This document shows positions 1 to 10,433 of a stretch of 10,433 nucleotides of DNA, piece after piece. The DNA is from a virus (taxonomy: Duplodnaviria; Heunggongvirae; Uroviricota; Caudoviricetes). Location of the stretch: IMG/VR virus record IMGVR_UViG_2698536657_000012, positions 1-10,433 of that record, one strand, 5' to 3'. Within the stretch, counting starts at the first letter, position 1. The number at the start of each line of letters is the position of its first letter. The translations under genes were made by a program, and so were the position numbers. The notes under the pieces are model-generated. The model did no database searches, was not told the DNA's origin, and saw only the letters and a list, made by a program, of their open reading frames with translations.

Positions 1-6
1 GCATGC

Positions 7-252
7 TTACATCATCATGTCGCTGTCGGGTGTGGGTTCACCGCCATCTGAAGCACTCCCGTCACCCGCAATGCCTTCCGGCTCCGGAACAGCCGGTGCG
101 CCCAGCAGTTCATCCAGAATGGCATCCACTTCTGCATCAAGACGCGACTCAAGGTTCTGGCGGAGTTTCTGTTTCAGTGCGCTCAGGACTTCTTCAGAGC
201 GCAGGACTTCCTTCAATGCTTCAGCAGTGACCAGGGGTTTTACTTCTGACAT
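7..252 (-). CDS. Hypothetical small acidic protein, 82 aa from the ATG at 250-252 (MSEVKPLVTAEALKEV...); the ORF-track ORF extends to 414 but has no better start
   Basis: Complete ORF with TAA stop at 7-9; helix-like, non-repetitive composition, unlike the S/R-rich overlapping plus-strand ORFs; weak SD (GAGAAAA). Function not recognised. Confidence 0.4.
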   Translation of the reverse strand: MSEVKPLVTAEALKEVLRSEEVLSALKQKLRQNLESRLDAEVDAILDELLGAPAVPEPEGIAGDGSASDGGEPTPDSDMMM

Positions 253-277
253 AGGATTTTCTCGCTGAAAGGGGTTA

Positions 278-460
278 TTAAGGAGTAATGGGCTCTTCGG
301 GTTTGCTTCCGGCTGACTGACTGGCGCTGATTTTCTCTGCGGCCCTTTTATCAATCTGCCTGCGCCAGAAATCGCGCACTGCCCTGTACCCACCTGAAAG
401 AAGATACAGCACACAGACCGCCGTACAGAAGTACAGCATCACCTGATGAATAAATATCAT
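278..460 (-). CDS. Small predicted membrane protein, 60 aa: one N-terminal hydrophobic helix (IFIHQVMLYFCTAVCVLYLL) and a charged C-terminal tail
   Basis: ATG at 458-460, TAA stop at 278-280; strongly hydrophobic N-terminus followed by a basic/acidic tail; lies directly downstream of nanS-p in the same orientation. Confidence 0.4.
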   Translation of the reverse strand: MIFIHQVMLYFCTAVCVLYLLSGGYRAVRDFWRRQIDKRAAEKISASQSAGSKPEEPITP

Positions 461-478
461 AATTTCTTACCGTTATGG

Positions 479-508
479 TTGACAATGAGAACTGTTTTCA
501 TTTAAAAA
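479..508 (+). promoter_or_regulatory. Candidate sigma70 promoter on the plus strand: perfect -35 TTGACA (479-484), A/T-rich -10 region (TTTAAAAA, about 501-508)
   Basis: Consensus -35 hexamer with a 16-18 nt spacer to a weak -10; would start a plus-strand transcript about 80 nt upstream of the terminator at 558-594. Confidence 0.3.
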
Positions 509-557
509 ACCAATGTACGAAAGCATCTTTTCTTTATTTTCTCCATGGGTATTACCA

Positions 558-594
558 CCGCCAGCTTCCATTCCTGCCGCTGGCGGCTTTTTTT
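558..594 (+). terminator. Intrinsic-terminator-like hairpin (CCGCCAGC ... GCTGGCGG) followed by T7 on the plus strand
   Basis: 8-bp GC-rich stem with a ~13-nt loop, then TTTTTTT on the plus strand; on the minus strand it is preceded by A7 and not followed by a U-tract. It sits just 3' of the nanS-p stop codon (600-602). Confidence 0.5.
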
Positions 595-599
595 AGCAA

Positions 600-2558
600 T
601 TATGCGGCTGCTCCAGCTTTGTTTGCTTTAACTTCCACCGTATCAATAAGTACAGGGTAAGTTTCAGCAGTACCTGTAATATCCGTAATGACAAACCTGT
701 TGAGTTCATTAGCAGTATTGGCCCATTTCACCAGGTCAAACGCCTGTCCATCCACGCCATCAAACACCGGAGTAACATTAATGCTGTTACTGCCCTTAAA
801 TTTAAATGCAAGCGTATGCCAGTCATGGTCGAATGCGCCAAACGTGCCAAGTTCTTTTTGTTGATTACCTGTATGATGGTATGCAACATCAATACTGGCT
901 TTATCTGTCTGGACAAAGAAAGAACTCAGATAGCCTTCACCACCCTCACCCGGCCATTCCGCTATTCGCCAGTACAAACCAAAGGCATACTTGTTTCTGG
1001 TTGTTTCAAGATTGACGTTTTCAGGGATTTTAAACCGGACAGCAATTTCCCCGCCTTTTTCCAGTAACAGTTTTGCCTTGTCTGCAGCAATATCACAGTA
1101 CATTGACCAGGATTTCGCGCTGTTATTTTTCTCAATTCGCAGAGCTTTATTGCCGCTGTCATCAACCAGTGTGCGTCTGCCATCCATACCGTCCCAGCCA
1201 TAAGGTTTCAGCTGATTGTCCGAAGCTTTTTTGGCATCGTAGAGAATGACAGACTCCGAAGTGGCAACCGTATTTTCTTCATTATGAGCTTCAGAAGCTG
1301 GCGATGAAGAAGATGTTGGCGCCTCTTCCGGTGCTGTTACTTCTGTAATACCATTCACAAAGGCAGATGATTTACCTGCATAGGTTACAATTGCTGTTGC
1401 CAGTCGATCCGAAACGATACCTCGACGAGCCCATGAGCTAAAATGGCTATCTCTGTACTGTGACGTCCATGTTGTTGAACTATCACGCCATCTGGAGCCA
1501 TAATATCCAATAGCTTCAATATCCGGGTCTTCCTCGGGCTTATTGGTTGTAACATTTGCATTATTTTCATCCGTCATAAACGGAACAAAATAAATAGCCT
1601 TATCCGTTTTCCCTTTGTAACCACCGTACACAACTTCATATTGAGACGCGTATTTGGTTTTCCAGTAATACGTGGTATCGCCGCAAATCCAGGGGACTTT
1701 CGCAGCACTACCATATACGCATTGAGCATCATATTTCTCTAACTCAGTGCGGAAACCTTCAACCATTTTCAGGAAAAGTGCATTGTGTTCTGCATGTTTT
1801 CCGGCAGCCATATCTGCCTCACCCTGCATCCAGACAACGCCAAGAAATACGTTCTTTTTGTTTTTGTCTAATGCAGCTTTGGTTCTGGCAACCAGATCTT
1901 TATATAGAGGTGTCCCAAGCCCCCATTTTGATGATGCGTCGATTGCGCCAGAGGCTTCATAATACTGTCCTTCTGTTCCGGTACTAAAGCCTGATCCGCC
2001 ACGTCCACAAGGGACCAGCAGAATACCTGCATTAGCAGGGATAAATGGCAGTAGTTTCTTACCAATATGCAAACCCTGGCCAACACAACCGTATTCTGCA
2101 TCTTTAGCTTTGGGGTGTTTTAGCCTGGTCATATCTTCAACATCATGAAGACAATGGTCTGCCGGAATGATGTCGTTATATTTACAGGGAGTACCTCCCG
2201 GTGTCACCGTACTGCGACGCGCCAGCTGCTTAATACGCGGGTCCGGACGGTCATATGTCTCCGGCAGCGGAAGGCCTTCACCATATGCCATGCTGTTTGA
2301 CTGGCCAGCCAGCGTAATCACGTAGTAATACTCCGGGTCGCTGGTGGCGCTGATAACTGTGCCTTCTCCATCCGACGGCTTCACCACCACAGGTGTGGTG
2401 ACATCACCTTCCGCCGCAATGGCCTGCATCAGGGTATAAGGCGTGATGGCCACCGGGCTGCCAAATGGCTGCCACCCCTCCTTCAGTTTTTGAGTCAGTC
2501 GCTCCGCAAGGTCTGACGGCGACGCCGCCCTGACCACGTCATAGTGTTTAAATGCCAT
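600..2558 (-). CDS. nanS-p: Prophage-encoded sialate (9-O-acetyl-Neu5Ac) O-acetylesterase NanS-p: N-terminal DUF1737-like region, SGNH/SASA esterase core with GQSN motif, C-terminal carbohydrate-binding-like region
   Basis: 652-aa ORF with ATG at 2556-2558 and strong SD (GGGAGG); ITLAGQSNSMAYGEG esterase motif; N-terminus MAFKHYDVV typical of the family; position downstream of the tRNA/toxin locus as in Stx prophages. Confidence 0.88.
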   Translation of the reverse strand: MAFKHYDVVRAASPSDLAERLTQKLKEGWQPFGSPVAITPYTLMQAIAAEGDVTTPVVVKPSDGEGTVISATSDPEYYYVITLAGQSNSMAYGEGLPLPETYDRPDPRIKQLARRSTVTPGGTPCKYNDIIPADHCLHDVEDMTRLKHPKAKDAEYGCVGQGLHIGKKLLPFIPANAGILLVPCGRGGSGFSTGTEGQYYEASGAIDASSKWGLGTPLYKDLVARTKAALDKNKKNVFLGVVWMQGEADMAAGKHAEHNALFLKMVEGFRTELEKYDAQCVYGSAAKVPWICGDTTYYWKTKYASQYEVVYGGYKGKTDKAIYFVPFMTDENNANVTTNKPEEDPDIEAIGYYGSRWRDSSTTWTSQYRDSHFSSWARRGIVSDRLATAIVTYAGKSSAFVNGITEVTAPEEAPTSSSSPASEAHNEENTVATSESVILYDAKKASDNQLKPYGWDGMDGRRTLVDDSGNKALRIEKNNSAKSWSMYCDIAADKAKLLLEKGGEIAVRFKIPENVNLETTRNKYAFGLYWRIAEWPGEGGEGYLSSFFVQTDKASIDVAYHHTGNQQKELGTFGAFDHDWHTLAFKFKGSNSINVTPVFDGVDGQAFDLVKWANTANELNRFVITDITGTAETYPVLIDTVEVKANKAGAAA

Positions 2559-2755
2559 GAATCCTCCCGGTCGGGATAATGTTGTGAGTCAGATAAGGGG
2601 CGGGCTGAAGTCCGGAAGTTACAGGACAATGACAGAAGGAAGACTACAGCCCGCAATACGAAAAAGGCCGCGCAGTTGCGCAGAGTGATTACTGTCGGGT
2701 ATTATTCGCCAGCTGAAAAATTGATTACTTCACGTTTTGTTGTTTATTCCTTGCT

Positions 2756-2784
2756 GCCCGCATCTCACCATGCGGGCTTTTTTT
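2756..2784 (+). terminator. Plus-strand intrinsic terminator: GCCCGCAT-ctcacc-ATGCGGGC followed by TTTTTTT
   Basis: Perfect 8-bp stem, 6-nt loop, T7 run immediately 3' on the plus strand. Confidence 0.5.
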
Positions 2785-2788
2785 ATCC

Positions 2789-2815
2789 ATAAGAAAGCCC
2801 CTCCGGAGAGGGGCT
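2789..2815 (-). terminator. Minus-strand intrinsic terminator T1: AGCCCCTC-(4-nt loop)-GAGGGGCT followed by UUCUUAU; marks the end of repeat copy 1
   Basis: Perfect 8-bp GC-rich stem; U-rich tract only on the minus strand. Confidence 0.5.
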
Positions 2816-3045
2816 GGAGTAGCGCTATGTACCGTTCATTGCATGATGCCGGGTGCCTCCCGGTGAGTTCAGCCCGGTGCCACCGAACCCGCGTCATTCT
2901 CGCTAACGATCATCAGAGACCATACCGTACACCAGCCGCCCCTCCGCACAGGGGGATTCATCATGCAGAAATTTTTTAACAAATTCTCAGTCGGGAAGAC
3001 AACCTTCAACTGACTGAATTGTGAGCAACATAGCATTTAACGGGG
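2796..3045. repeat. Copy 1 of a tandemly duplicated ~250-nt structured non-coding element (period ~487 bp)
   Basis: Shares with copy 2: AAAGCCCCTCCGGAGAGGGGCTG (23/23); TGCCGGGTGCCTCCCGGTGAGTTCAG (26/26); GAACCCGC; GCCCCTCCGC(A/T)CAGGGGGATTCA(T/C)CATGC; TTTTAACAAA; CTGAATTGTGAG ... CGGGG. The same order and spacing are preserved. Confidence 0.7.
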
Positions 3046-3059
3046 AACCTGTTTTCTGC

Positions 3060-3090
3060 AGTAAAAAGGCCCACCGGAGCGGACGGGCCT
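3060..3090 (-). terminator. Minus-strand terminator-like hairpin (AGGCCC ... GGGCCT) followed by UUUUUAC
   Basis: 6-bp outer stem plus inner CCG/CGG pairs; T5 on the minus strand; lies in the spacer between the two repeat copies. Confidence 0.35.
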
Positions 3091-3275
3091 GGAAGGATAG
3101 CGGTCATGTGATGCCGGTTTCCCGGTAACTCAGCACCGGTATCTGAGTCAACGTTTTCTCTACTGGGTCATTTCCGATACGCCCTGCCTGCTGACAGGCT
3201 TTCATCACATCTGAAAATATAGCACCCTGACTGATACTGTAGTACCCAAGGTTCCAGAAACTGTGATGTATCCGG

Positions 3276-3303
3276 CACAGAAAAGCCCCTCCGGAGAGGG
3301 GCT
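3276..3303 (-). terminator. Minus-strand intrinsic terminator T2: same AGCCCCTC/GAGGGGCT hairpin as T1, followed by UUUUCUGUG; marks the end of repeat copy 2
   Basis: Identical 8-bp stem to copy 1; U-rich tract on the minus strand only. Confidence 0.5.
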
Positions 3304-3530
3304 GACGCTGCGTATCTGTATCATCATGCGCATGGTGCCGGGTGCCTCCCGGTGAGTTCAGTATCAGCACCTGAACCCGCACAGAAAGGATAAGGGATGT
3401 AACCAAACACCTGTCGCTGATATGCCCCTCCGCTCAGGGGGATTCACCATGCCAGTTTCTTTTAACAAACTCCCCGCAAATCAGACAACTGTCAACCGTC
3501 TGAATTGTGAGACATTTAAAATTTTCGGGG
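3284..3530. repeat. Copy 2 of the tandemly duplicated ~250-nt structured non-coding element
   Basis: See copy 1; conserved blocks are identical in order and offset by 486-489 nt; intervening sequence has diverged. Confidence 0.7.
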
Positions 3531-3581
3531 CAACAGGAAGACAATCATCACGACACCGGCAACCAGCGACCGGCACCAGAT

Positions 3582-4517
3582 TTAACGTATGTGCACACAA
3601 CCTGAACCGGCATCAAAAAACAAACCGTGCACTGACAGAAAACGGGAAACCTCCGTCCGCTGATCATCACTCATTAAGGACCACACAAAGGCGTTATGCT
3701 CATCTTCAAGTTTCCGTCTTCTTGTTTGCCTTACAAGCAACTCAGCCGTCACCTGTACAATGTCAATGACCTCCTTCTCTTCAGCAATGTACGGCCTGTT
3801 CCAGTTGTCTGTGTTAATCTTCTCCGTCACCGGCGCTGACTTTTTGCAAGTTTCCCCATTAAACCCGACGCCATAAACAACAACATCATCGCTTTGCTTT
3901 TCGTTATCAATAATGACGAATAATACAGAAACCGATGTATCAGCGAACCCGCCTGAAATCTGAACCAACTCAACAACGCGGTTGCCAAAATACTGACGCA
4001 TTGCCAGCTCACCACGCCTGTAACCAACCCCGGGAAAGCACAAAAAAAATGAAAATCTTGCCTTCATGCTCGCCAGAACATAAAACGCGTCATCCAGAAC
4101 ACCGGAGGTCTTTTTATAAGGCATCATCGCTGAAATCTTCTCCCTGATATCCGCGCTCTGTGCTTTGTACTGTAGCGAAAAAGGCGGATTCATGATGACA
4201 CAATCGAACGTGTCCGTGTCACTGACATCATCGATGGCGTTGAAGAAATTTTCATTGACCGTCTTCACTGTGGCATCCGGGAAATTATCCGGGATATGCA
4301 CCAACGGAGAGGCCTGTATATCCACAGCATACAGACTTCCCACCGTGAGAAACTGCTCCAGTTGCCCGGAGCCACACGCACCATCAAAAATACTCAGGGG
4401 CAGATCACCACAATATTCCCGCACTTTTTCAGCGACAAACCGACGCAAAGGAACGGACGTGATGTACTCTGCGTATTTTCTGGCGACATCGCGATTATTG
4501 GACTCCTGAAAAACCAT
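3582..4517 (-). CDS. Putative orphan gamma-class N6-adenine (amino) DNA methyltransferase-like protein (311 aa from ATG at 4517; 331 aa if the GTG at 4577 is used)
   Basis: Motif I FDGACGSGQL followed about 65 aa later by motif IV NPPF (order I then IV = gamma class); no adjacent restriction gene; neither candidate start has a clear SD. Target (DNA versus RNA) cannot be told from sequence alone. Confidence 0.6.
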   Translation of the reverse strand: MVFQESNNRDVARKYAEYITSVPLRRFVAEKVREYCGDLPLSIFDGACGSGQLEQFLTVGSLYAVDIQASPLVHIPDNFPDATVKTVNENFFNAIDDVSDTDTFDCVIMNPPFSLQYKAQSADIREKISAMMPYKKTSGVLDDAFYVLASMKARFSFFLCFPGVGYRRGELAMRQYFGNRVVELVQISGGFADTSVSVLFVIIDNEKQSDDVVVYGVGFNGETCKKSAPVTEKINTDNWNRPYIAEEKEVIDIVQVTAELLVRQTRRRKLEDEHNAFVWSLMSDDQRTEVSRFLSVHGLFFDAGSGCVHIR

Positions 4518-4602
4518 TTGTGAAAGGCTCTGTGGTTGATATGCGCCGGGCGTGGCGCGGAGGCAAAAAAGGCCCACAAAAGCGAGCCAGGAAAAATAAG
4601 TG

Positions 4603-4679
4603 TGGTGCGTTGTACTGGATTCGAACCCGTGACCGATTGCTTAGAAGGCAATTGCTCTGTCCGGCTGAGCTAACAACGC
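4603..4679 (-). tRNA. argO: tRNA-Arg (anticodon UCU)
   Basis: 77 nt; acceptor stem GCGTTGT/ACAACGC, discriminator A and encoded CCA; D-arm GCTC...GAGC; anticodon loop CTTCTAA; T-loop TTCGAAT. Gene symbol assigned from the ileZ-argN-argO order known in Stx prophages. Confidence 0.85.
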
Positions 4680-4692
4680 AGTGTACAGATAA

Positions 4693-4769
4693 TGGACCGC
4701 CATCGAGGACTCGAACCCCGCGCAACCAGCTTCGAAGGCTGGCGCTCTATCCCGATGAGCTAATGGCGG
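4693..4769 (-). tRNA. argN: tRNA-Arg (anticodon UCG)
   Basis: 77 nt; acceptor CCGCCAT/ATGGCGG with encoded CCA; anticodon stem CCAGC/GCTGG with loop CTTCGAA; T-arm CGGGG-TTCGAGT-CCTCG. Confidence 0.8.
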
Positions 4770-4776
4770 TATGTGA

Positions 4777-4852
4777 TGGTGGCCCTTGCTGGATTTGAAC
4801 CAGCGACCTGGCGATTATGAGTCGCTCGCTCTCACCACTGAGCTAAAGGGCC
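4777..4852 (-). tRNA. ileZ: tRNA with CAU anticodon, ileX-like (tRNA-Ile2, lysidine type) rather than Met
   Basis: 76 nt; GGCCCTT acceptor stem, anticodon loop CTCATAA, T-loop TTCAAAT, encoded CCA; overall close to E. coli ileX as recalled from memory. Confidence 0.8.
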
Positions 4853-4861
4853 GGGCGCAGG

Positions 4862-4890
4862 ATAATAACGGTACGTAACTAATCCTGCAA
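4862..4890 (-). promoter_or_regulatory. Candidate sigma70 promoter for the tRNA cluster: -35 TTGCAG, 17-nt spacer, -10 TATTAT, about 8 nt upstream of the tRNA-Ile 5' end
   Basis: Read on the minus strand: TTGCAGgattagttacgtaccgtTATTATcctgcgcc followed by the tRNA; -10 matches 5/6. Confidence 0.45.
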
Positions 4891-4892
4891 TA

Positions 4893-5951
4893 TCATCCGT
4901 TCTGACTGGCTAAATCCTGAACTTCCCTGACCGTCTGCTCAAAACGTTCAGTCTCCAGCTCAACGCCAGTTGCACGACGCCCCAGCGCCATCGCTGCTTT
5001 GACTGTCGAACCCGACCCCATGAAAAAATCTGCAACCAGGTCACCCGGACGACTGCTCGCGCTGATTATCTGCTGCAGCATTTCTGCCGGTTTTTCGCAC
5101 GGATGTTTCCCGGGATAGTACTGCACCGGTTTATGCGTCCACACATCGGTGTACGGCACCTGCGCCGTCACACCGAAATACCGCCGCAGATGCTTATATT
5201 CACTCTGCAGTTCCGTATAGTGTCGGTTCAGTTCACTGTATGTGCTGACCAGTTGGTGATGTGGCTTTTCCAGTTCTCCGCGCTGATGCTTCTCTTCTGC
5301 CACCCGGGCAAACAGCGCCTGTAATTTCAGATAATCGCTTTCGTCCGGTAGCTGCCACTGACTGGCACTGAACCAGTGCGACACCATGTTTTTCTTTCCT
5401 GTGGCATCAGCAATCTGTTTTGCCGTTATCCCCAGGGCAGCACGTGCATCACGAAAGTAAGCAATCAGCGGGGCCATCACATGCTGTTTCAGTGCCCTGC
5501 CCTTCGCCTCATACCCGGCATCTTTCGGACGATACGGCCCCTGATAATGTTCCGCGAACAGAATGCGCTCTGTGGCGGGGAAATACGCCCTCAGGCTTTC
5601 CTTGTTGCACCCGTTCCAGCGTCCGGACGGCTTCGCCCAGATAATATGGTTCAGCACACTGAAGCGTTCACGCATCATGATTTCAATGTCAGATGCCAGG
5701 CGATGGCCACAGAACAGGTAAAGACTTCCGGCAGGTTTCAGCACCCGCCAGAACTGCGCCAGACACTGGTCCAGCCACTTCAGGTAATCATCGTCGCCCT
5801 TCCACTGGTTATCCCAGCCCTCAGGCTTCACTTTAAAGTACGGCGGGTCCGTGACTATCAGGTCAACAGAATTTTCGGGTAACGACCGGATAAATTCCAG
5901 GCAGTCGGCGTTGATTAACTCACAACTGGATATTTTTACAGTATTAAGCAT
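4893..5951 (-). CDS. DNA methyltransferase, beta-class N6-adenine/N4-cytosine family (PF01555-like), 352 aa
   Basis: N-terminal motif IV (SVDLIVTDPPYF) and C-terminal motif I (DFFMGSGSTVKAA): the order IV then I is the beta-class hallmark. No adjacent endonuclease ORF. Confidence 0.88.
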   Translation of the reverse strand: MLNTVKISSCELINADCLEFIRSLPENSVDLIVTDPPYFKVKPEGWDNQWKGDDDYLKWLDQCLAQFWRVLKPAGSLYLFCGHRLASDIEIMMRERFSVLNHIIWAKPSGRWNGCNKESLRAYFPATERILFAEHYQGPYRPKDAGYEAKGRALKQHVMAPLIAYFRDARAALGITAKQIADATGKKNMVSHWFSASQWQLPDESDYLKLQALFARVAEEKHQRGELEKPHHQLVSTYSELNRHYTELQSEYKHLRRYFGVTAQVPYTDVWTHKPVQYYPGKHPCEKPAEMLQQIISASSRPGDLVADFFMGSGSTVKAAMALGRRATGVELETERFEQTVREVQDLASQNG

Positions 5952-6084
5952 GGATCATTAAGCCTGTCTCTGATAGGCTCATTCTGCTTTTGCGCAAAGC
6001 AGTGGGCCTGAGGTTTGCTTGTGATCCGGACGCATGAGCAGATGGCTGGTGAGTGCCCCTAACACCCACCAGCCGCCCATTTAC

Positions 6085-6115
6085 CACAAATAAAAAAGCC
6101 TTCAGGACTGAAGGC
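6085..6115 (-). terminator. Minus-strand intrinsic terminator: GCCTTCA-GGAC-TGAAGGC followed by UUUUUUAUUUG; overlaps the stop codon of the wHTH ORF
   Basis: 7-8 bp stem and a long U-tract on the minus strand. Confidence 0.55.
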
Positions 6116-6299
6116 GTCTGTAACAACCGAACTGATAGTCTGCCAGACCCGCCATAACAAGCTGGGTCAGTATTAACTGGCAGCGTTCACGTGAAAGATA
6201 AGTATTCTGCGCAATCTCCCCGACTGTCGCCGGTTCGGTGGCACTTAATTCATTAAACACCACTCTGGCGGTTTCTGTCATATCCTGCTGTTTCAGCAT
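6102..6299 (-). CDS. Small (about 65 aa) winged-helix/HTH-like protein, putative DNA-binding regulator (MLKQQDMTETARVVFNELSATEPATVGEIAQNTYLSRERCQLILTQLVMAGL...)
   Basis: ORF-track ORF 6102-6335 has a TTG at its 5' end; the first ATG has an SD (AAGGGAAAAAG). The TVGEIAQ...LSRERCQLILTQL segment looks like an HTH recognition unit. Family not identified. Confidence 0.5.
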   Translation of the reverse strand: MLKQQDMTETARVVFNELSATEPATVGEIAQNTYLSRERCQLILTQLVMAGLADYQFGCYRRLQS

Positions 6300-6420
6300 G
6301 TCTTTTTCCCTTTTCCGGTTAACGTGACACACCAATAACTCTTGTCAAAAAAGCCAGCAAGCTGAAAGACCGGTATTCACCACCACCAGCGCGTTTACTG
6401 TACTGACGAGATTTTCGGAC

Positions 6421-6451
6421 ATAAAAAAAACCACCTGGCGGTGGTTTTTTC
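6421..6451 (-). terminator. Strong intrinsic terminator, tR'-like: CCACC-GCCA-GGTGG followed by U8 on the minus strand (flanked by A8 and T6, so the hairpin is bidirectional)
   Basis: Perfect GC-rich stem with long A/T runs on both sides; located about 60-70 nt downstream of the candidate late promoter. Confidence 0.7.
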
Positions 6452-6493
6452 TTACTTTGCCATCGCGTACAAAATCGGCAAAATATCAGATTT

Positions 6494-6528
6494 ATACGAA
6501 ACATACGCGATTTAATTGACTTTTGCAA
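6494..6528 (-). promoter_or_regulatory. Candidate late promoter (pR'-like): -35 TTGCAA, 17-nt spacer, -10 TATGTT, read on the minus strand; overlaps the last codons of the Q-like ORF
   Basis: Hexamers each 4/6 to consensus with ideal spacing; position relative to the upstream ORF and the downstream terminator fits the lambdoid Q-pR'-tR' layout. Confidence 0.4.
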
Positions 6529-7201
6529 TATCTCGTCGTGAAAAGGTCGCTTTTTGTTGCGCTCTTATTTTCACGGAGCAAATCAAGGATTCTCTATCGA
6601 GGCGCTTAAAAATATCGCACATCTCACGCCAGTAGTTCGCATAATTATGGCTCCAGTTATCAGGCTTAACTCCACACAGTCTGGCAAGCTCCTGTCTCTG
6701 GTAGACCTCACACCCGGTAACCCATCCTCTGACATCCTGTGCCGCCAGCCAGATCAACTTCTTCACACGCTCCAGCGTTTTCACTGCAATTTTTCTGGAG
6801 CCGGACTGAGTTTTAAATTCACTCCACACCCACTGTGTTATGGTGACCTGATCTTCCCAGCAAACATTTCCACTGTAGCACCACAGTAACCACGCCTTCT
6901 GATGTTCTTCCAGTTCCAGAACGGCACGCCGCCACGATGATGTTGCAAACTCAACCGGACTGACCAGAGCAATTGACGTCCCTTTCGCCAGTGATTGTTT
7001 GCCCGGGATCGGTGGATTATCCCGCGTGATCATTTTTCCGGTTACCTCATCGCGGTAACGAATTTTTTTACGTCTGTAACGCCCTGTATCGAACAGGGCA
7101 TTTTCCTGCCAGGCTTCCAGCTGGCCTTTTGTCGACCCACTGAGATCCGCAGTGGCAATCATGAGTTGCTCACGAACAAACTGTAAATACTGGCTATTCA
7201 T
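6512..7201 (-). CDS. Q-like late antiterminator candidate, 229 aa from ATG at 7199-7201 (functional call is positional only)
   Basis: The ORF itself is solid; its start overlaps the rusA stop (ATGAATAG). It lies between rusA and the pR'/tR'-like module, where lambdoid phages encode Q, but no lambda-type Cys4 zinc motif was recognised; a Roi-like or other nin-region protein is possible. Confidence 0.55.
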   Translation of the reverse strand: MNSQYLQFVREQLMIATADLSGSTKGQLEAWQENALFDTGRYRRKKIRYRDEVTGKMITRDNPPIPGKQSLAKGTSIALVSPVEFATSSWRRAVLELEEHQKAWLLWCYSGNVCWEDQVTITQWVWSEFKTQSGSRKIAVKTLERVKKLIWLAAQDVRGWVTGCEVYQRQELARLCGVKPDNWSHNYANYWREMCDIFKRLDRESLICSVKIRAQQKATFSRRDIAKVN

Positions 7202-7556
7202 GCACACCCACCTCTGTAATTCTTATCTCCAGCCGTCCACCAGATACTGGCTGGCCACGTACAATATTGATTTCATCAAACTGCTCATCGTCCATTAACA
7301 TTCCCGCATGCGTCAGCGCATCCAGCGGCGCTTTCAGAATATTGTCCAGGTCACGACGACGCTTATCCGGTGGCTCTGCAATAATTTTTATTGCCAGCCG
7401 TCCGGACAGTCTTAATTTCAGCCGCTGCTGGCGAACAATAAGCGCCACTGCACGGCGATAACGCTCCCCGGCTTTTGATACAAAATATGTGCTGCCACGG
7501 CGTCGCCAGTAAGTGTTCACCGTCGGCGGGTAAGGTAAAACCAAATCTATGAGCAT
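7194..7556 (-). CDS. rusA: Holliday-junction resolvase RusA (crossover junction endodeoxyribonuclease), 120 aa
   Basis: ATG with strong SD (AGAGGTGA); conserved RusA blocks (PPDKRRRDLDNILKAPLDALTHAGMLMDDEQ... GGRLEIRITE) match E. coli RusA as recalled from memory. Confidence 0.88.
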   Translation of the reverse strand: MLIDLVLPYPPTVNTYWRRRGSTYFVSKAGERYRRAVALIVRQQRLKLRLSGRLAIKIIAEPPDKRRRDLDNILKAPLDALTHAGMLMDDEQFDEINIVRGQPVSGGRLEIRITEVGVHE

Positions 7557-7568
7557 CAGTCACCTCTT

Positions 7569-8618
7569 TTACCCGAGCACGCCAGTCGCAAAGGCGTGAT
7601 CAAGAAAACGAAAAATTAACTCAATCTGAGAGCCGTACTTTTTCTCAAACTCCAGCGGGTCTGCATGAAGTTCGTTGTGGTGCTCCCGGCACAACGGTAG
7701 CGTGAAAATATCGTGGGCCTTTGTTCCCATTCCCCCCTGACCATGGCCAATCAGGTGATGCGGATCGTCGGCTGGCTTACCACAACACGCGCACGGCTGT
7801 GTCTTAACCCAGCGCGTGTATTTCTCATTAACCCAACGGCGACGTTTAGGCCGCCTCATGAACGATTCAGGAGACTCCGGATCAACGGCGATACTGACAA
7901 CCGTTTTTTTCTGTGGTGGATTTTGTTGCTGGTGGACGTGAAGTGGCAGCGCAATATTTTTTGTGCGCTGCTTCAGTATGCTGATGGCTGTCTGTTCTCC
8001 CGGTACGATGTCACTCTCACGGTATACGGAGCGGATTTTTCCCACCGGTAATCCCAGTGAACGACGCAATACAGACTCCGGAAGCGCATCAGCCACCTGA
8101 TTGCAGACCGCCCACCAGCATAACTCTGCCAGCGACAGTTCCCGCTCCTGTGTGCCATTCATTGCGTGACGTATGACATCAATCATCCAGGCTGCCAGAT
8201 TCTGCTGAGCAAGTTGATCGAGTGATTCTGATGTCTGGTCGCGCTGCTGGTTGTCACAGTGCCAGCACAACACCATCGCGCCGGTACCGTAACGGTGAAT
8301 GACGGTTTCGCTGTGATGATAATCGCCATGTGGCCACTGGCAGGATTTCACGTGACGTAATAACCAGTCAGACAGTGCACCTGCACCCCCCGCAGCACGA
8401 ATCACCCGTTCGTTGCTGAAAAATGGCAGTAATGTTTTATCCTCTGCCAGCGACTGTCGAACGGCGGGAACGACTCCGGACGGCAGACCGCGCATGTTTT
8501 TCGGTTCCGGCTCCACCAGTATTCTGCCGTTATGGAATGCTGACATTGATTCACGGCCCGGCTTTAGGAGCACCATCCCGAGTTCTGGCACCAGAACAGG
8601 TCGAAGTAATACCCGCAC
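7569..8618 (-). CDS. DUF968-family prophage protein (YdfU-like), 349 aa, with a C-terminal Cys/His-rich HNH/NinG-like motif
   Basis: GTG start preceded by a perfect SD (GGAGGtaacGTG) that overlaps the upstream ORF's TAA stop; C-terminus PCACCGKPADDPHHLIGHGQGG...LCREHHNELHAD. Confidence 0.75.
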   Translation of the reverse strand: MRVLLRPVLVPELGMVLLKPGRESMSAFHNGRILVEPEPKNMRGLPSGVVPAVRQSLAEDKTLLPFFSNERVIRAAGGAGALSDWLLRHVKSCQWPHGDYHHSETVIHRYGTGAMVLCWHCDNQQRDQTSESLDQLAQQNLAAWMIDVIRHAMNGTQERELSLAELCWWAVCNQVADALPESVLRRSLGLPVGKIRSVYRESDIVPGEQTAISILKQRTKNIALPLHVHQQQNPPQKKTVVSIAVDPESPESFMRRPKRRRWVNEKYTRWVKTQPCACCGKPADDPHHLIGHGQGGMGTKAHDIFTLPLCREHHNELHADPLEFEKKYGSQIELIFRFLDHAFATGVLG

Positions 8619-8619
8619 G

Positions 8620-8898
8620 TTACCTCCAGATGCGCTGCTGGAATGTGCGGGACGGACGCGGTGGGCGTTCGGAATAAGGGAGCCTGACGGAGATTATCCA
8701 GTGGCGACGGTCAAGACTGAGAGCTTTCTCAAACTCATACCCGCGTCTGCGGTAGTTCTGAATCAACCATTCGGCCTGTTCTTCAGTGCATGGGGCATGC
8801 TGGAACCAGTCAGATTTGAATGCATGAGAACGCCGCCCGTGCCTGCTGGCAGGGGCGGCGAAGTTATCCGAATTGTGTAATTTTGTATCGTGCGCCAT
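8620..8898 (-). CDS. Hypothetical nin-region protein, 92 aa from ATG at 8896-8898 (ORF-track version starts at a TTG at 8979)
   Basis: Its stop is translationally coupled to the DUF968 gene start. No motif recognised; positionally comparable to the small genes next to ydfU in Qin-like prophages. Confidence 0.45.
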   Translation of the reverse strand: MAHDTKLHNSDNFAAPASRHGRRSHAFKSDWFQHAPCTEEQAEWLIQNYRRRGYEFEKALSLDRRHWIISVRLPYSERPPRPSRTFQQRIWR

Positions 8899-8978
8899 CG
8901 GTTGTCTCTGCTGGCGCAGCAGGTGCCAGTTGTTCAGGCTGGCGTGCGGATTGTAAACCAGAATACGGGGGTAACACA

Positions 8979-8998
8979 AAGCCCGCCTCTGTGGGCTT
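8979..8998. other. GC-rich hairpin (AAGCCC-8 nt-GGGCTT) between the hicAB operon and the nin-region genes; possible weak terminator
   Basis: 6-bp stem; flanks are only moderately T-rich on either strand; coincides with the compositional boundary of the AT-rich moron. Confidence 0.3.
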
Positions 8999-9003
8999 GA
9001 TTA

Positions 9004-9438
9004 TTAAGCCGAGCCCGGCACATACCAAGGGAAATAAATATCACTTAACGACGTGTGTTTGAGAACAGAGTCCACCGCCAATTTCAACGTCAACGACATG
9101 AAATTCTCAAAATACCATGAATTTTCTACAAAGAACTTTTCATCGATCGCCCCTCCATTAATGATATCAAAGTCCGTAATCAGCTCCATCTTTAACTCAA
9201 AAGATGGTTCTTCATCACCGACAGGCTCTCCCTCTCTATCAGGATACCCTTTTATCGATGGCGAAAACCCAATCCGAAACCAACTGGTACCATCATCATC
9301 ACGCCCCGAAGCAAATTTAAGTTCCTCAATCGAGACCTTAAAAAAACCTCCATCATCACTAGTGTTATCCCTGAAACTACTGGAAACTATATCGAAACCA
9401 GCATACTTAATATTTTTTAACATCAGTGACGTATCCAT
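9004..9438 (-). CDS. Hypothetical acidic protein, 144 aa, third gene of the hicA-hicB operon
   Basis: ATG at 9436-9438 lies 16 nt upstream of the hicB stop (overlapping genes); SD-like GAGG about 10 nt upstream; D/E-rich; AT-rich codon usage like hicAB. No recognisable domain. Confidence 0.6.
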   Translation of the reverse strand: MDTSLMLKNIKYAGFDIVSSSFRDNTSDDGGFFKVSIEELKFASGRDDDGTSWFRIGFSPSIKGYPDREGEPVGDEEPSFELKMELITDFDIINGGAIDEKFFVENSWYFENFMSLTLKLAVDSVLKHTSLSDIYFPWYVPGSA

Positions 9439-9899
9439 CGCTCACTAACCTCTTTCCTTTTTGTTCTTACTGAAGATGGAACAACATAATTAAGAAGAAA
9501 TACGCCATCCCAAACAAGTGTATCTGCCGTTTCTTTATTTTCGGGATGAGAATGAACTTCTTTTTTACCTGCAATCTTTTCTTCAATGGCTTTACGCACA
9601 TAATCATTAAGCGTCGTCTTATCCATCATTGCAGCCAAAAACGCTTTCTTATGAAGATCGCGACCTATTCTGATGTTAAAAGTACCACTCATTGGTTTAT
9701 CAGGAGATTTACCCAACTGCTTGCATGTATCGAGGTAATCTGTAACAGCCTCTTCAAAAGCTGCCCTTAACCCATCCAGTGTTTCCGCTTCGTAGGTTAC
9801 AACATCGTTTACACACTGAATTTTCCCATGAAGTATGTTATCTTCAAGAGAAATCTCAATGCTACCAAAATAACCTTTATAACTCAGCACATTACTCAT
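9423..9899 (-). CDS. hicB: HicB-family antitoxin (COG4226-like N-terminal domain fused to a C-terminal ribbon-helix-helix-like DNA-binding segment), 158 aa from ATG at 9897-9899
   Basis: YKGYFGSIE...EDNILHGKI...YEAETLDGLRAAFEEAVTDYLDTCKQLGK..P.KP.SGTFNIRIGRDLHKKA matches the conserved HicB pattern as recalled from memory; its ATG overlaps the hicA stop (ATGAGTAA). Confidence 0.78.
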   Translation of the reverse strand: MSNVLSYKGYFGSIEISLEDNILHGKIQCVNDVVTYEAETLDGLRAAFEEAVTDYLDTCKQLGKSPDKPMSGTFNIRIGRDLHKKAFLAAMMDKTTLNDYVRKAIEEKIAGKKEVHSHPENKETADTLVWDGVFLLNYVVPSSVRTKRKEVSERWIRH

Positions 9900-10140
9900 A
9901 ACTATCAATCTCATCCAAAAGATTTTTCACTTCTTTAAGCACATATCCTTTAACAATATTGCCAGGATGTGGGCAATGAAAAGCCACAAGCCTTCCATTA
10001 CCATTGGCAAACTTCCTTCTTGAGCCTGAGCCGGTAAGCATTTCGAAACCATAATGCCCAAGCAACGTCACGAGTTCATCCCATGTAAAATCCTTTGGAA
10101 GCTGATTCAGACGCCCCCTCAACTTCTCTTTTTTGCTCAT
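9892..10140 (-). CDS. hicA: HicA-family mRNA-interferase toxin (YcfA-like), 82 aa
   Basis: Small basic protein, WDELVTLLGHYGFEM...GSGSRRKF...FHCPHPGNIVKGYVLKEV, consistent with the HicA fold motif; located immediately upstream of and overlapping hicB in the canonical toxin-first order. Confidence 0.75.
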   Translation of the reverse strand: MSKKEKLRGRLNQLPKDFTWDELVTLLGHYGFEMLTGSGSRRKFANGNGRLVAFHCPHPGNIVKGYVLKEVKNLLDEIDSYE

Positions 10141-10168
10141 TTAAAGTATATCCCTTCCCCCACCAATA

Positions 10169-10187
10169 GCAACTAATAATCAGTTGC
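10169..10187. promoter_or_regulatory. Inverted repeat GCAACT-n7-AGTTGC upstream of hicA; candidate operator for the RHH-type HicB
   Basis: Perfect 6-bp arms separated by 7 nt, about 30 nt upstream of the hicA start, within an A/T-rich putative promoter region. Confidence 0.4.
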
Positions 10188-10433
10188 AAACTCAGCGCGA
10201 TAAAGAAGCATAAGAATCCTGCACCTAATACATAACTTAAGAAAACACGTGTGAGCATGAAAATGCTACAATAATGTTTAAATCACTTACCAGTAAGGTT
10301 AAGTGCGGGTGCGTTGAGGATGCCTGACACATCAGAGGTAGCGGGAGATTACTCTCCCGCCTGGTCACTCTTACTCATCAGGTTCGTAGACTGTGAAAAC
10401 AGCGACCTCCGTCTGGCCGGTTCGGATTCGTAC

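Follow-up and report, generated by a model that had tools for sequence, protein, structure and literature searches.

The stretch of DNA analyzed here, hereafter called the window, comprises 10,433 nucleotides (nt) of a virus of the Caudoviricetes (IMG/VR record IMGVR_UViG_2698536657_000012, positions 1 to 10,433). The subject of this study is an orphan beta-class DNA methyltransferase (MTase) gene in this window, together with the small open reading frame (ORF) for a winged-helix protein that precedes it and the 150-nt spacer between the two. Coordinates are window positions, and all relevant genes are on the minus strand. Every element named in the initial annotation, which had been made from the sequence, was present in the window on that strand. 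The region is probably best explained as a late-operon cassette, under Q control, of an stx-negative lambdoid prophage. From the Q gene to the MTase gene, the following features were identified:

6512-7207, minus strand: Q antiterminator gene (Pfam PF06323, Phage_antiter_Q, E = 7.8e-84; annotated as Q in a 99.9%-identical E. coli prophage)
6425-6450, minus strand: tR'-like intrinsic terminator between Q and the small ORF (both-strand terminator scan and sequence)
6326-6361, minus strand: conserved motif upstream of the small ORF (cross-locus comparison)
6102-6299, minus strand: small winged-helix ORF, 65 amino acids (aa) from the ATG at 6299 (RefSeq and phage record annotation)
6089-6115, minus strand: intercistronic terminator hairpin with U-run, stem at 6098-6115 (terminator scan)
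5952-6101, minus strand: spacer of 150 nt (sequence)
5952-6081, minus strand: conserved structured leader of the MTase gene, approximately 130 nt (conservation, covariation)
4893-5951, minus strand: beta-class MTase gene, 352 aa (Pfam N6_N4_Mtase, PF01555, E = 7e-44)

The MTase shows the motif order of beta-class enzymes (motif IV, central target recognition domain (TRD), C-terminal motif I); DPPY begins the series at aa 35, and FMGSGS follows at aa 310. It matched PADLOC MTase_II (1.2e-163) and was likewise assigned as an MTase by PHROGs. It is 97% identical to the MTase of phage 1720a-02 and shares 333 of 348 residues (96%) with M.EcoGII, a count that loses some weight through its machine-read reference (Supplementary Table S1 of PMC11551740), as a few of the mismatches look like reading errors. 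The window MTase is an orthologue of M.EcoGII and is predicted to be active as a beta-class N6-adenine DNA/RNA methyltransferase. The core finding was, to judge from the sequence match, already known, since the gene is a near-identical copy of a characterized one, which the initial annotation had missed.

M.EcoGII, an MTase of the beta class, acts on adenine irrespective of sequence context in double-stranded DNA, single-stranded DNA, and RNA (Murray et al., 2018, PMC5778455), and the MTase of phage 1720a-02 was named there as very similar to it (Murray et al., PMC5778455). The enzyme is prophage-borne, not expressed in the lysogen, and deleterious if expressed constitutively (PMC5778455; PMC7736820). 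With M.EcoGII (and M.EcoGI) of E. coli O104:H4 C227-11, the window protein has in common the order DPPY - TRD - FxGxG, the location on a prophage, and the gene family of phage 1720a-02, whereas it differs in length (352 aa vs. 349 aa) and in its C-terminal tail. Rediscovery of an enzyme that has been purified, sold, and widely used for chromatin footprinting is ordinary by itself. PMC5778455 covers the enzyme, but not its small upstream ORF, its terminator or its leader.

According to the published proposal for M.EcoGII, the enzyme would shield phage DNA broadly against restriction and be expressed in phage development only (PMC5778455; PMC7736820). The anti-restriction role suggested in the initial annotation agrees with this proposal, given the 96% identity of the two proteins. 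The other role suggested at that stage was epigenetic control of late genes; for site-specific control of this kind, a non-specific adenine MTase is a poor candidate. No endonuclease gene was found in the window (ORFs, Pfam, PADLOC), and no nuclease ORF adjoins the small ORF/MTase pair in the window or in related loci; PADLOC returned an MTase only. The Stx-phage 'rRNA methyltransferase' (Gong et al., 2023, PMC10810198) was considered as an identity for the window MTase and rejected, as it is an MT-A70 enzyme with a DPPW motif and a different gene. That gene is disrupted by IS629 in one of the two phages compared there (PMC10810198).

Stx-negative lambdoid prophages in a small number of E. coli genomes match the window at 99.9% identity. 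For window 3400-7300, from Q to the second MTase, coverage of at least 80% at one place was found in only 11 of 5426 complete E. coli genomes. The block of small ORF and MTase is 96-97% identical to its counterpart in phage 1720a-02 and in numerous Stx2a/Stx2d phages, where it lies before the transfer RNA (tRNA) genes and stx2, and 87% identical to L23-L24 of phage phiP27. A diverged block of small ORF, spacer, and MTase occurs in approximately 180 further loci across Enterobacterales. As the pattern recurs in Stx2 phages and in these diverged loci, it is not due to chance. The cassette was found after three different Q families and before lysis genes (E. coli, Salmonella, Klebsiella, Buttiauxella).

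In the late cassette of Stx2 phages (phiP27 L23-L24; 1720a-02; Stx2a/Stx2d), the order is Q - tR' - small ORF - MTase - ileZ/argN/argO - stx2. The small ORF, spacer, MTase, and tRNAs of the window resemble this cassette at 87-97% nucleotide identity, whereas a second MTase (3582-4577) occupies the stx slot here and Q is of another type. The terminator at 6425-6450 is a bidirectional hairpin with A/T runs on both flanks, approximately 60 nt past the Q stop codon, and a terminator equivalent to tR' stands upstream of the cassette in every related locus. Everything downstream of the Q gene is within the Q-dependent late transcript. The position of the gene, its Pfam match, and its motif order thus bear out the initial description of an orphan beta-class MTase inserted as a cassette between tR' and the tRNAs.

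A truncated form of the MTase gene seems to occur in other phages. Positions 4590-4960 were covered to at least 80% in 272 of 289 matching phage records, and in most of the matches listed, the match with Stx2a phages takes in the last approximately 70 nt of the MTase gene (window 4893-4960). The small ORF/MTase block was covered to at least 80% in only 36 of 253 phage records. As the match reaches the 3' end of the gene and few records cover the block, several Stx2a phages seem to hold an MTase remnant beside the tRNAs.

No part of the locus is better conserved or less well explained than the spacer with its leader, which was overlooked in the initial annotation. In a six-genus alignment, the 150-nt spacer was conserved above either flanking gene. 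The leader core (5952-6081) retained 79-84% identity to the window where 60-90% of neighbouring synonymous sites were changed; at such saturation of the adjacent sites, this identity indicates purifying selection on the leader. Among the 105 IMG/VR loci found by a leader motif, the MTase follows in 104, with its start 129-131 nt after the start of the motif. Apart from L035 and L048, every locus from Enterobacteriaceae, Erwiniaceae, Providencia, and Morganella has the leader, among them 13 of the 16 genomic loci without the small ORF; the leader travels with the MTase. A covariance model (CM) of the leader, R1, scored 104-178 bits in 100 loci, and the minimum free energy (MFE) of the window leader has a z-score of -4.26. 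A separate observation concerns one Klebsiella locus (L007, 5001-5883), which retains the small ORF and whose leader is intact (R1 score, 174 bits), but which has lost the MTase; a TerB-like gene follows approximately 540 nt later.

Searches of Rfam 15 with the whole window, and permissively with the spacer alone, assigned no family to the leader (best score 16.6 bits vs. a gathering score of 36), and no description of it was found in a literature search. No Shine-Dalgarno sequence was detected 5-10 nt before the MTase AUG in any member of the leader family examined, and the promoter scanner found no sigma-70 promoter inside the G+C-rich spacer.

The leader RNA can adopt two folds, designated A and B, which share one hairpin:

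6044-6074, minus strand: P2, G+C-rich hairpin of 12 base pairs (bp) common to both folds
6003-6079, minus strand: fold A, a three-way junction in which P1 (6075-6079 with 6003-6007) encloses P2 and P3 (6033-6042 with 6014-6023)
5953-6026, minus strand: fold B, with P5 (6016-6026 with 5953-5964) and P6 (6002-6009 with 5975-5982)

In fold A, P1 consists of UGGGC/GCCCA, the hairpin P4 follows the junction, and the 3' part, including the start region, is single-stranded. In fold B, P2 is lengthened by the pairing of 6075-6080 with 6034-6039 (AUGGGC/GCUCAU). P5 joins GAUCAcAAGC to GCUUAaUGAUC and pairs bases -2 to -13 before the AUG, and P6 joins GGCCCA to UGAGCC, which contains a GAG, around P4 (5986-6000 in both folds). 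Fold B is the MFE fold of the window leader. Of 100 sequences, 84 favored it energetically over fold A, and the mean difference was 5.3 kcal/mol.

Both folds were supported across 99 distinct sequences in the CM-based alignment. In fold A, 96.3% of cells were paired (slid-partner controls, 27-44%), and 10 pairs showed compensatory change. In fold B, the corresponding value was 95.9% (slid-partner controls, 28-42%), with compensatory change at 12 pairs, some of them next to the AUG. For each fold, none of 500 shuffles reached the observed value. P2 was paired in 97.3% of cells, and six of its pairs had changed on both sides. An independent MAFFT alignment agreed with both folds. Over all of these comparisons, the slid controls ranged within 27-46%. 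The strongest single pair, in P3, occurred as CG (35), UA (34), AU (20), and UG (5). In locus L019, the 5' strand of P1 carries a G to A change and the 3' strand a C to U change 77 nt away. In Providencia, the segment GCUCAU is changed to GCCCGU, and both of its alternative partners stay paired. Covariation and computation thus support two mutually exclusive, conserved folds of the predicted leader RNA.

Three other candidates were tried within the leader and rejected. An upstream ORF beginning with (A/G)TG AGC CTA and overlapping the MTase start has no start codon in 5 or more of 50 sequences, and any longer frame is interrupted by indels. A mechanically called 60-aa ORF (5944-6126) was rejected on the same start-codon and indel grounds. 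A hairpin AUCAG/CUGAU, in which a ribosome-binding site would be split (GAG near the AUG), showed frequent uncompensated changes.

The spacer may alternatively be kept as a stable processed small RNA (sRNA), as an RNase or processing signal, or as a DNA-level site, in which case one of the two folds would be incidental. Late regions of prophages of enterohaemorrhagic E. coli yield sRNAs at similar positions, for example StxS (PMC7547250), and STnc100 copies lie nearby. Moreover, hardly any variation is seen across the 5' arm of P2 or its flank GUGGAAAUGGGCGGCUGGUGGGUGUU, a degree of constancy beyond what pairing alone needs. However, the leader keeps a fixed distance of 129-131 nt to the MTase AUG and is linked to the MTase rather than to a phage position, compensatory changes reach the bases right before the AUG, and no promoter or terminator that would bound a separate sRNA was found in the spacer. 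In addition, the G-U wobble changes fit the sense strand only, which excludes a purely DNA-level site. We therefore consider such an alternative role improbable.

Compared with translational riboswitches and other bistable leaders, the MTase leader shows the same pattern of two exclusive, maintained folds, of which one pairs the region before the AUG and the other forms a three-way junction. It differs in that it has no Rfam match, no conventional Shine-Dalgarno sequence to hide, and no known ligand.

Between the small ORF and the leader, the intercistronic hairpin GCCUUCA-GUCC-UGAAGGC (7 pairs) is followed by TTTTTTATTT; the U-run was also given as UUUUUUAUUU. The TGA stop codon of the small ORF sits in the 3' arm of this hairpin. 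The hairpin was found in 88 of 90 distinct loci and is kept by compensatory changes in other genera. A G+C-rich hairpin with a U-run is the sequence signature of an intrinsic terminator, and termination at this site is accordingly predicted.

Purifying selection marks the small ORF as a real gene, as its dN/dS against orthologues of other genera was approximately 0.06-0.11, where computable, with saturated synonymous sites (60-90% changed) and a difference of 7-23% at non-synonymous sites. The mechanically called ORF is longer (6102-6335, 77 aa from a TTG at 6335), and 6335 is the end coordinate that the initial annotation gave. The family is restricted to Enterobacterales (341-429 clusters). 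NCBI labels it 'TrmB family' or 'DprA-like winged helix', and PHROGs lists it under phrog_331, 'unknown function' (1.8e-37). The protein has two Cys.

An AlphaFold2 (AF2) model of the small protein from a 37-sequence alignment (pLDDT 91.4) has the topology H-H-H-beta-beta, with helices at 9-16, 26-33, and 37-49 and strands at 53-56 and 59-62. The best Foldseek matches were MarR/OhrR (OhrR, TM score 0.82) and IclR, and matches to winged-helix domains of S-adenosylmethionine (SAM)-dependent O-methyltransferases and to the RNA-binding winged helix of SelB were also obtained. All Pfam matches were to winged-helix families. Those of the window protein were below the gathering threshold, with TrmB at 18.5-19.1 bits (cut-off 25.6) and DprA_WH at 15.4 bits (cut-off 22.9). 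Within the family, at E ≤ 0.1, DprA_WH matched 18 of 30 members (best E = 3.7e-6) and TrmB 17 of 30. A sequence search against the PDB gave no match, and a profile search gave weak winged-helix matches only. A single-sequence AF2 model, four-helical and with meaningless PDB matches to acyl-carrier proteins, was discarded in favor of the alignment-based one. The protein is, as modeled, a minimal winged helix with putative nucleic-acid binding. The alignment-based model and the Foldseek matches justify the winged-helix label of the initial annotation, and its description of such an ORF before the MTase, ending in a terminator, likewise holds.

The motif CTTGCTG-N12-(C)AGAGTTAyyTGTrTGT lies 25-60 nt upstream of the start of the small ORF (window 6361-6326). 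It was present in all 64 distinct loci with the small ORF, including those of Xenorhabdus and Photorhabdus, and in none of the 16 without it. The motif (CTTGCTG-N12-CAGAGTTA..TGT) is not palindromic, fits sigma-70 promoters poorly, and was not called by the scanner. It is a candidate promoter or operator of the small gene, and the small protein is most likely a DNA-binding regulator of this promoter-like motif of its own.

In a scan for the MTase with one genome per species, 80 loci were obtained, from Escherichia to Xenorhabdus, Photorhabdus, Providencia, and Morganella. The small ORF was directly upstream on the same strand in approximately 62 of the 78 loci with an intact upstream region; 16 loci had no homologue of it, and the upstream ORF, where callable, was unrelated. 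Among the IMG/VR loci, 96 of 105 had both genes and 8 the MTase only. The small ORF is thus absent from approximately 10-20% of the loci with MTase and leader, and its product is a frequent but dispensable partner of the MTase.

These data bear on the role of the small protein. C proteins such as C.PvuII, C.AhdI, and C.Esp1396I are small helix-turn-helix-type proteins encoded beside the MTase in type II systems. The initial annotation had likened the small ORF to such a controller, which would bind upstream of the MTase and time or limit its transcription. A small protein of a DNA-binding-type fold is indeed encoded directly upstream, on the same strand, in approximately 80-90% of loci, and a conserved DNA motif strictly co-occurs with it. 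However, this motif lies upstream of the small ORF and not of the MTase, and it is no palindromic C-box. The protein has no HTH_3 match and is not of the Xre type, matching only winged-helix families with its H-H-H-beta-beta model, and the small ORF has no PADLOC match. Furthermore, a terminator separates the two genes, the G+C-rich spacer contains no promoter-like site, and where the small ORF is absent, MTase and leader are still found, placed behind unrelated genes. With a fold other than Xre and no endonuclease, the restriction-modification controller reading fails, and we regard control of MTase transcription by the small protein as very unlikely.

The winged-helix protein could also be an accessory subunit or modulator of the MTase that affects its targeting, its specificity or its toxicity. 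A precedent exists in a different MTase family, where a second subunit redirects another Stx-phage MTase (MT-A70, DPPW family) to 16S rRNA (PMC10810198). The adjacency of small ORF and MTase is conserved, and the top Foldseek matches include winged-helix dimerization domains of SAM-dependent methyltransferases; likeness to generic winged helices, however, is not specific. As M.EcoGII alone is fully active and non-specific, the small partner is dispensable in 10-20% of loci, and a terminator between the genes does not fit stoichiometric co-expression, there is little to recommend this role.

A third role would be analogous to com-mom of phage Mu, with the winged-helix protein binding the leader RNA, stabilizing the three-way junction, and opening the MTase start. 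In Mu, Com, a zinc finger protein, opens the mom start site, and Mom is not known to be a SAM-dependent MTase. Both systems concern a late, toxic, adenine-modifying gene with a small gene directly upstream. In silico, the start region of the MTase appears similarly buried in mRNA structure, as the conserved fold B pairs -2 to -13 and is the MFE fold, and a structured start region without Shine-Dalgarno sequence, with the OFF fold being the more stable, would call for an activator. Winged helices can bind RNA, and the mRNA-binding domain of SelB is among the Foldseek matches. Nevertheless, the two systems are unrelated in sequence and fold, the partner here is a winged helix instead of a zinc finger, and it is dispensable: 8 of 105 viral loci have the leader but no small ORF, as do the 13 of 16 genomic loci mentioned above. 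Conversely, Xenorhabdus and Photorhabdus have lost the three-way junction but retain the small ORF, whose tightest partner is the DNA motif upstream of it. Such an activation, suggested by analogy, is unlikely.

The reading that we favor, and consider rather probable, is that of a late-operon anti-restriction cassette equipped with two terminators and possibly a leader switch, the latter predicted computationally. During lytic growth, the enzyme would methylate replicating phage DNA at adenines in any context and thereby shield it in the next host from restriction that is sensitive to adenine methylation, as may be expected from the published biochemistry. Given the toxicity of the MTase, its expression is proposed to be gated serially. 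Transcripts from pR' would end at tR' unless Q modifies RNA polymerase, which is the standard lambdoid arrangement. The terminator at the stop codon of the small gene would block Q-independent transcription that starts from the motif of the small gene. In the third step, at the level of translation, fold B may represent the OFF state, in which the 12 bases before the Shine-Dalgarno-less start codon and the only upstream GAG are paired, and the three-way junction of fold A, which frees both, the ON state.

In the lysogen, any mRNA that passes both terminators would fold into fold B and be poorly translated, and silence of the window MTase is predicted from the two terminators and the leader. 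After induction, Q-modified polymerase would read through both terminators, and some signal would bring the leader into fold A. This signal could be the winged-helix protein, the level of SAM or S-adenosylhomocysteine, the folding kinetics behind a fast Q-modified polymerase, or self-methylation of the leader by the RNA-active enzyme; each of these was ranked as unlikely at best. The further suggestion that the leader (5952-6081) is an undescribed bistable cis-regulatory RNA of M.EcoGII-family genes, with translation OFF by default and released on a lytic signal, is tentative and somewhat less probable than not.

Several points weigh against the favored reading. The folds were derived from the same sequences on which they were scored, with alignment A4 fitted to fold A, and the sequences are related, so significance is overstated by the shuffles. 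Only a small number of divergent lineages (Providencia, Morganella, and L039) account for the support of P5 and P6. The U-run of the intercistronic terminator is strong only in the E. coli lineage and weak elsewhere. The in vivo anti-restriction role of M.EcoGII stands as a proposal in the literature. Finally, Xenorhabdus and Photorhabdus keep, by eye, only GUGAAAUGG and a P2-like, often terminator-like hairpin, and this shortened leader means that the full switch is not essential to the MTase family.

In the Xenorhabdus and Photorhabdus loci (L056-L091), GUGAAAUGG and the hairpin lie approximately 90 nt upstream of the MTase, and in many loci a U-run follows. R1 gave no significant matches on these loci. 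The arrangement suggests that the enterobacterial P2 hairpin and a plain attenuator share their origin.

While the literature describes the enzyme as 'not expressed', two terminators and a leader that buries a Shine-Dalgarno-less start would offer a concrete, testable account of how the lysogen tolerates the gene. If the leader is a real switch, it would be a compact natural OFF-by-default module for toxic genes and might help to explain the difficulty of constitutive expression. The phrog_331 winged-helix protein and its invariant motif have no described function, although numerous Stx2 phage records show them a short way upstream of stx2.

Downstream of the MTase, the following features were found:

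4862-4890, minus strand: pT, promoter of the tRNA cluster, TTGCAG-17-TATTAT (sequence; pT annotation in AF548457)
4603-4852, minus strand: three tRNA genes (ARAGORN, Rfam tRNA, RefSeq)
3582-4577, minus strand: second, unrelated gamma-type MTase (Pfam N6_Mtase; phrog_6380)
2785-3481, minus strand: STnc100-like repeats (Rfam)
600-2558: gene for a NanS-p-type esterase (Pfam)

The tRNA cluster is of the ileZ-argN-argO type, with tRNA(CAU), tRNA-Arg(UCG), and tRNA-Arg(UCU). Its promoter consists of TTGCAG (4890-4885), 17 nt, and TATTAT (4867-4862), and ends 9 nt before tRNA(CAU). A simple promoter scanner rejects the site, as its -35 box matches at only 3 of 6 positions. AF548457 lists the site as 'pT, putative tRNA promoter', and phages without the MTase (H87/H88), whose homology breaks off precisely at the MTase stop codon, have kept it. 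For phage Sp5, of the Stx2a type, a primary transcription start that appears to drive the tRNAs was mapped between tR' and stx2 (Sy et al., 2020, PMC7547250). Stx2a phage records other than Sp5 match the pT/tRNA stretch at 94-96%. A separate promoter for the tRNAs, as proposed initially, is supported by the site, its annotation, and the Sp5 start, and was already known.

The second MTase, which the initial annotation had placed on the far side of the tRNAs as unrelated to the first, was confirmed as such by motif order, Pfam, and PHROGs. Motif I is located at aa 65 and NPPF at aa 130. It matched Pfam N6_Mtase with only 21.5 bits, phrog_6380 with 1.9e-79, and PADLOC mad2 weakly, and it occupies the slot of stxAB/stx2 in related phages. 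In the complete prophage of E. coli FHI_NMBU_11, a third gene annotated as 'DNA-methyltransferase' is present among the lysis genes, outside the window (L003, 2046-2981), which would bring the element to three or more MTases.

Between the second MTase and the nanS-p-type esterase gene lies a tandem array of the sRNA STnc100 (Rfam), with two full copies on the minus strand (2785-2995 and 3275-3481; 168 and 135 bits, gathering score 47) and a partial, degenerate copy (3061-3234). In the early/nin region, genes for a HicA toxin (9892-10140; PF07927, 1.1e-9) and a HicB antitoxin (9423-9914; PF05534, 1e-17) were found on the minus strand.

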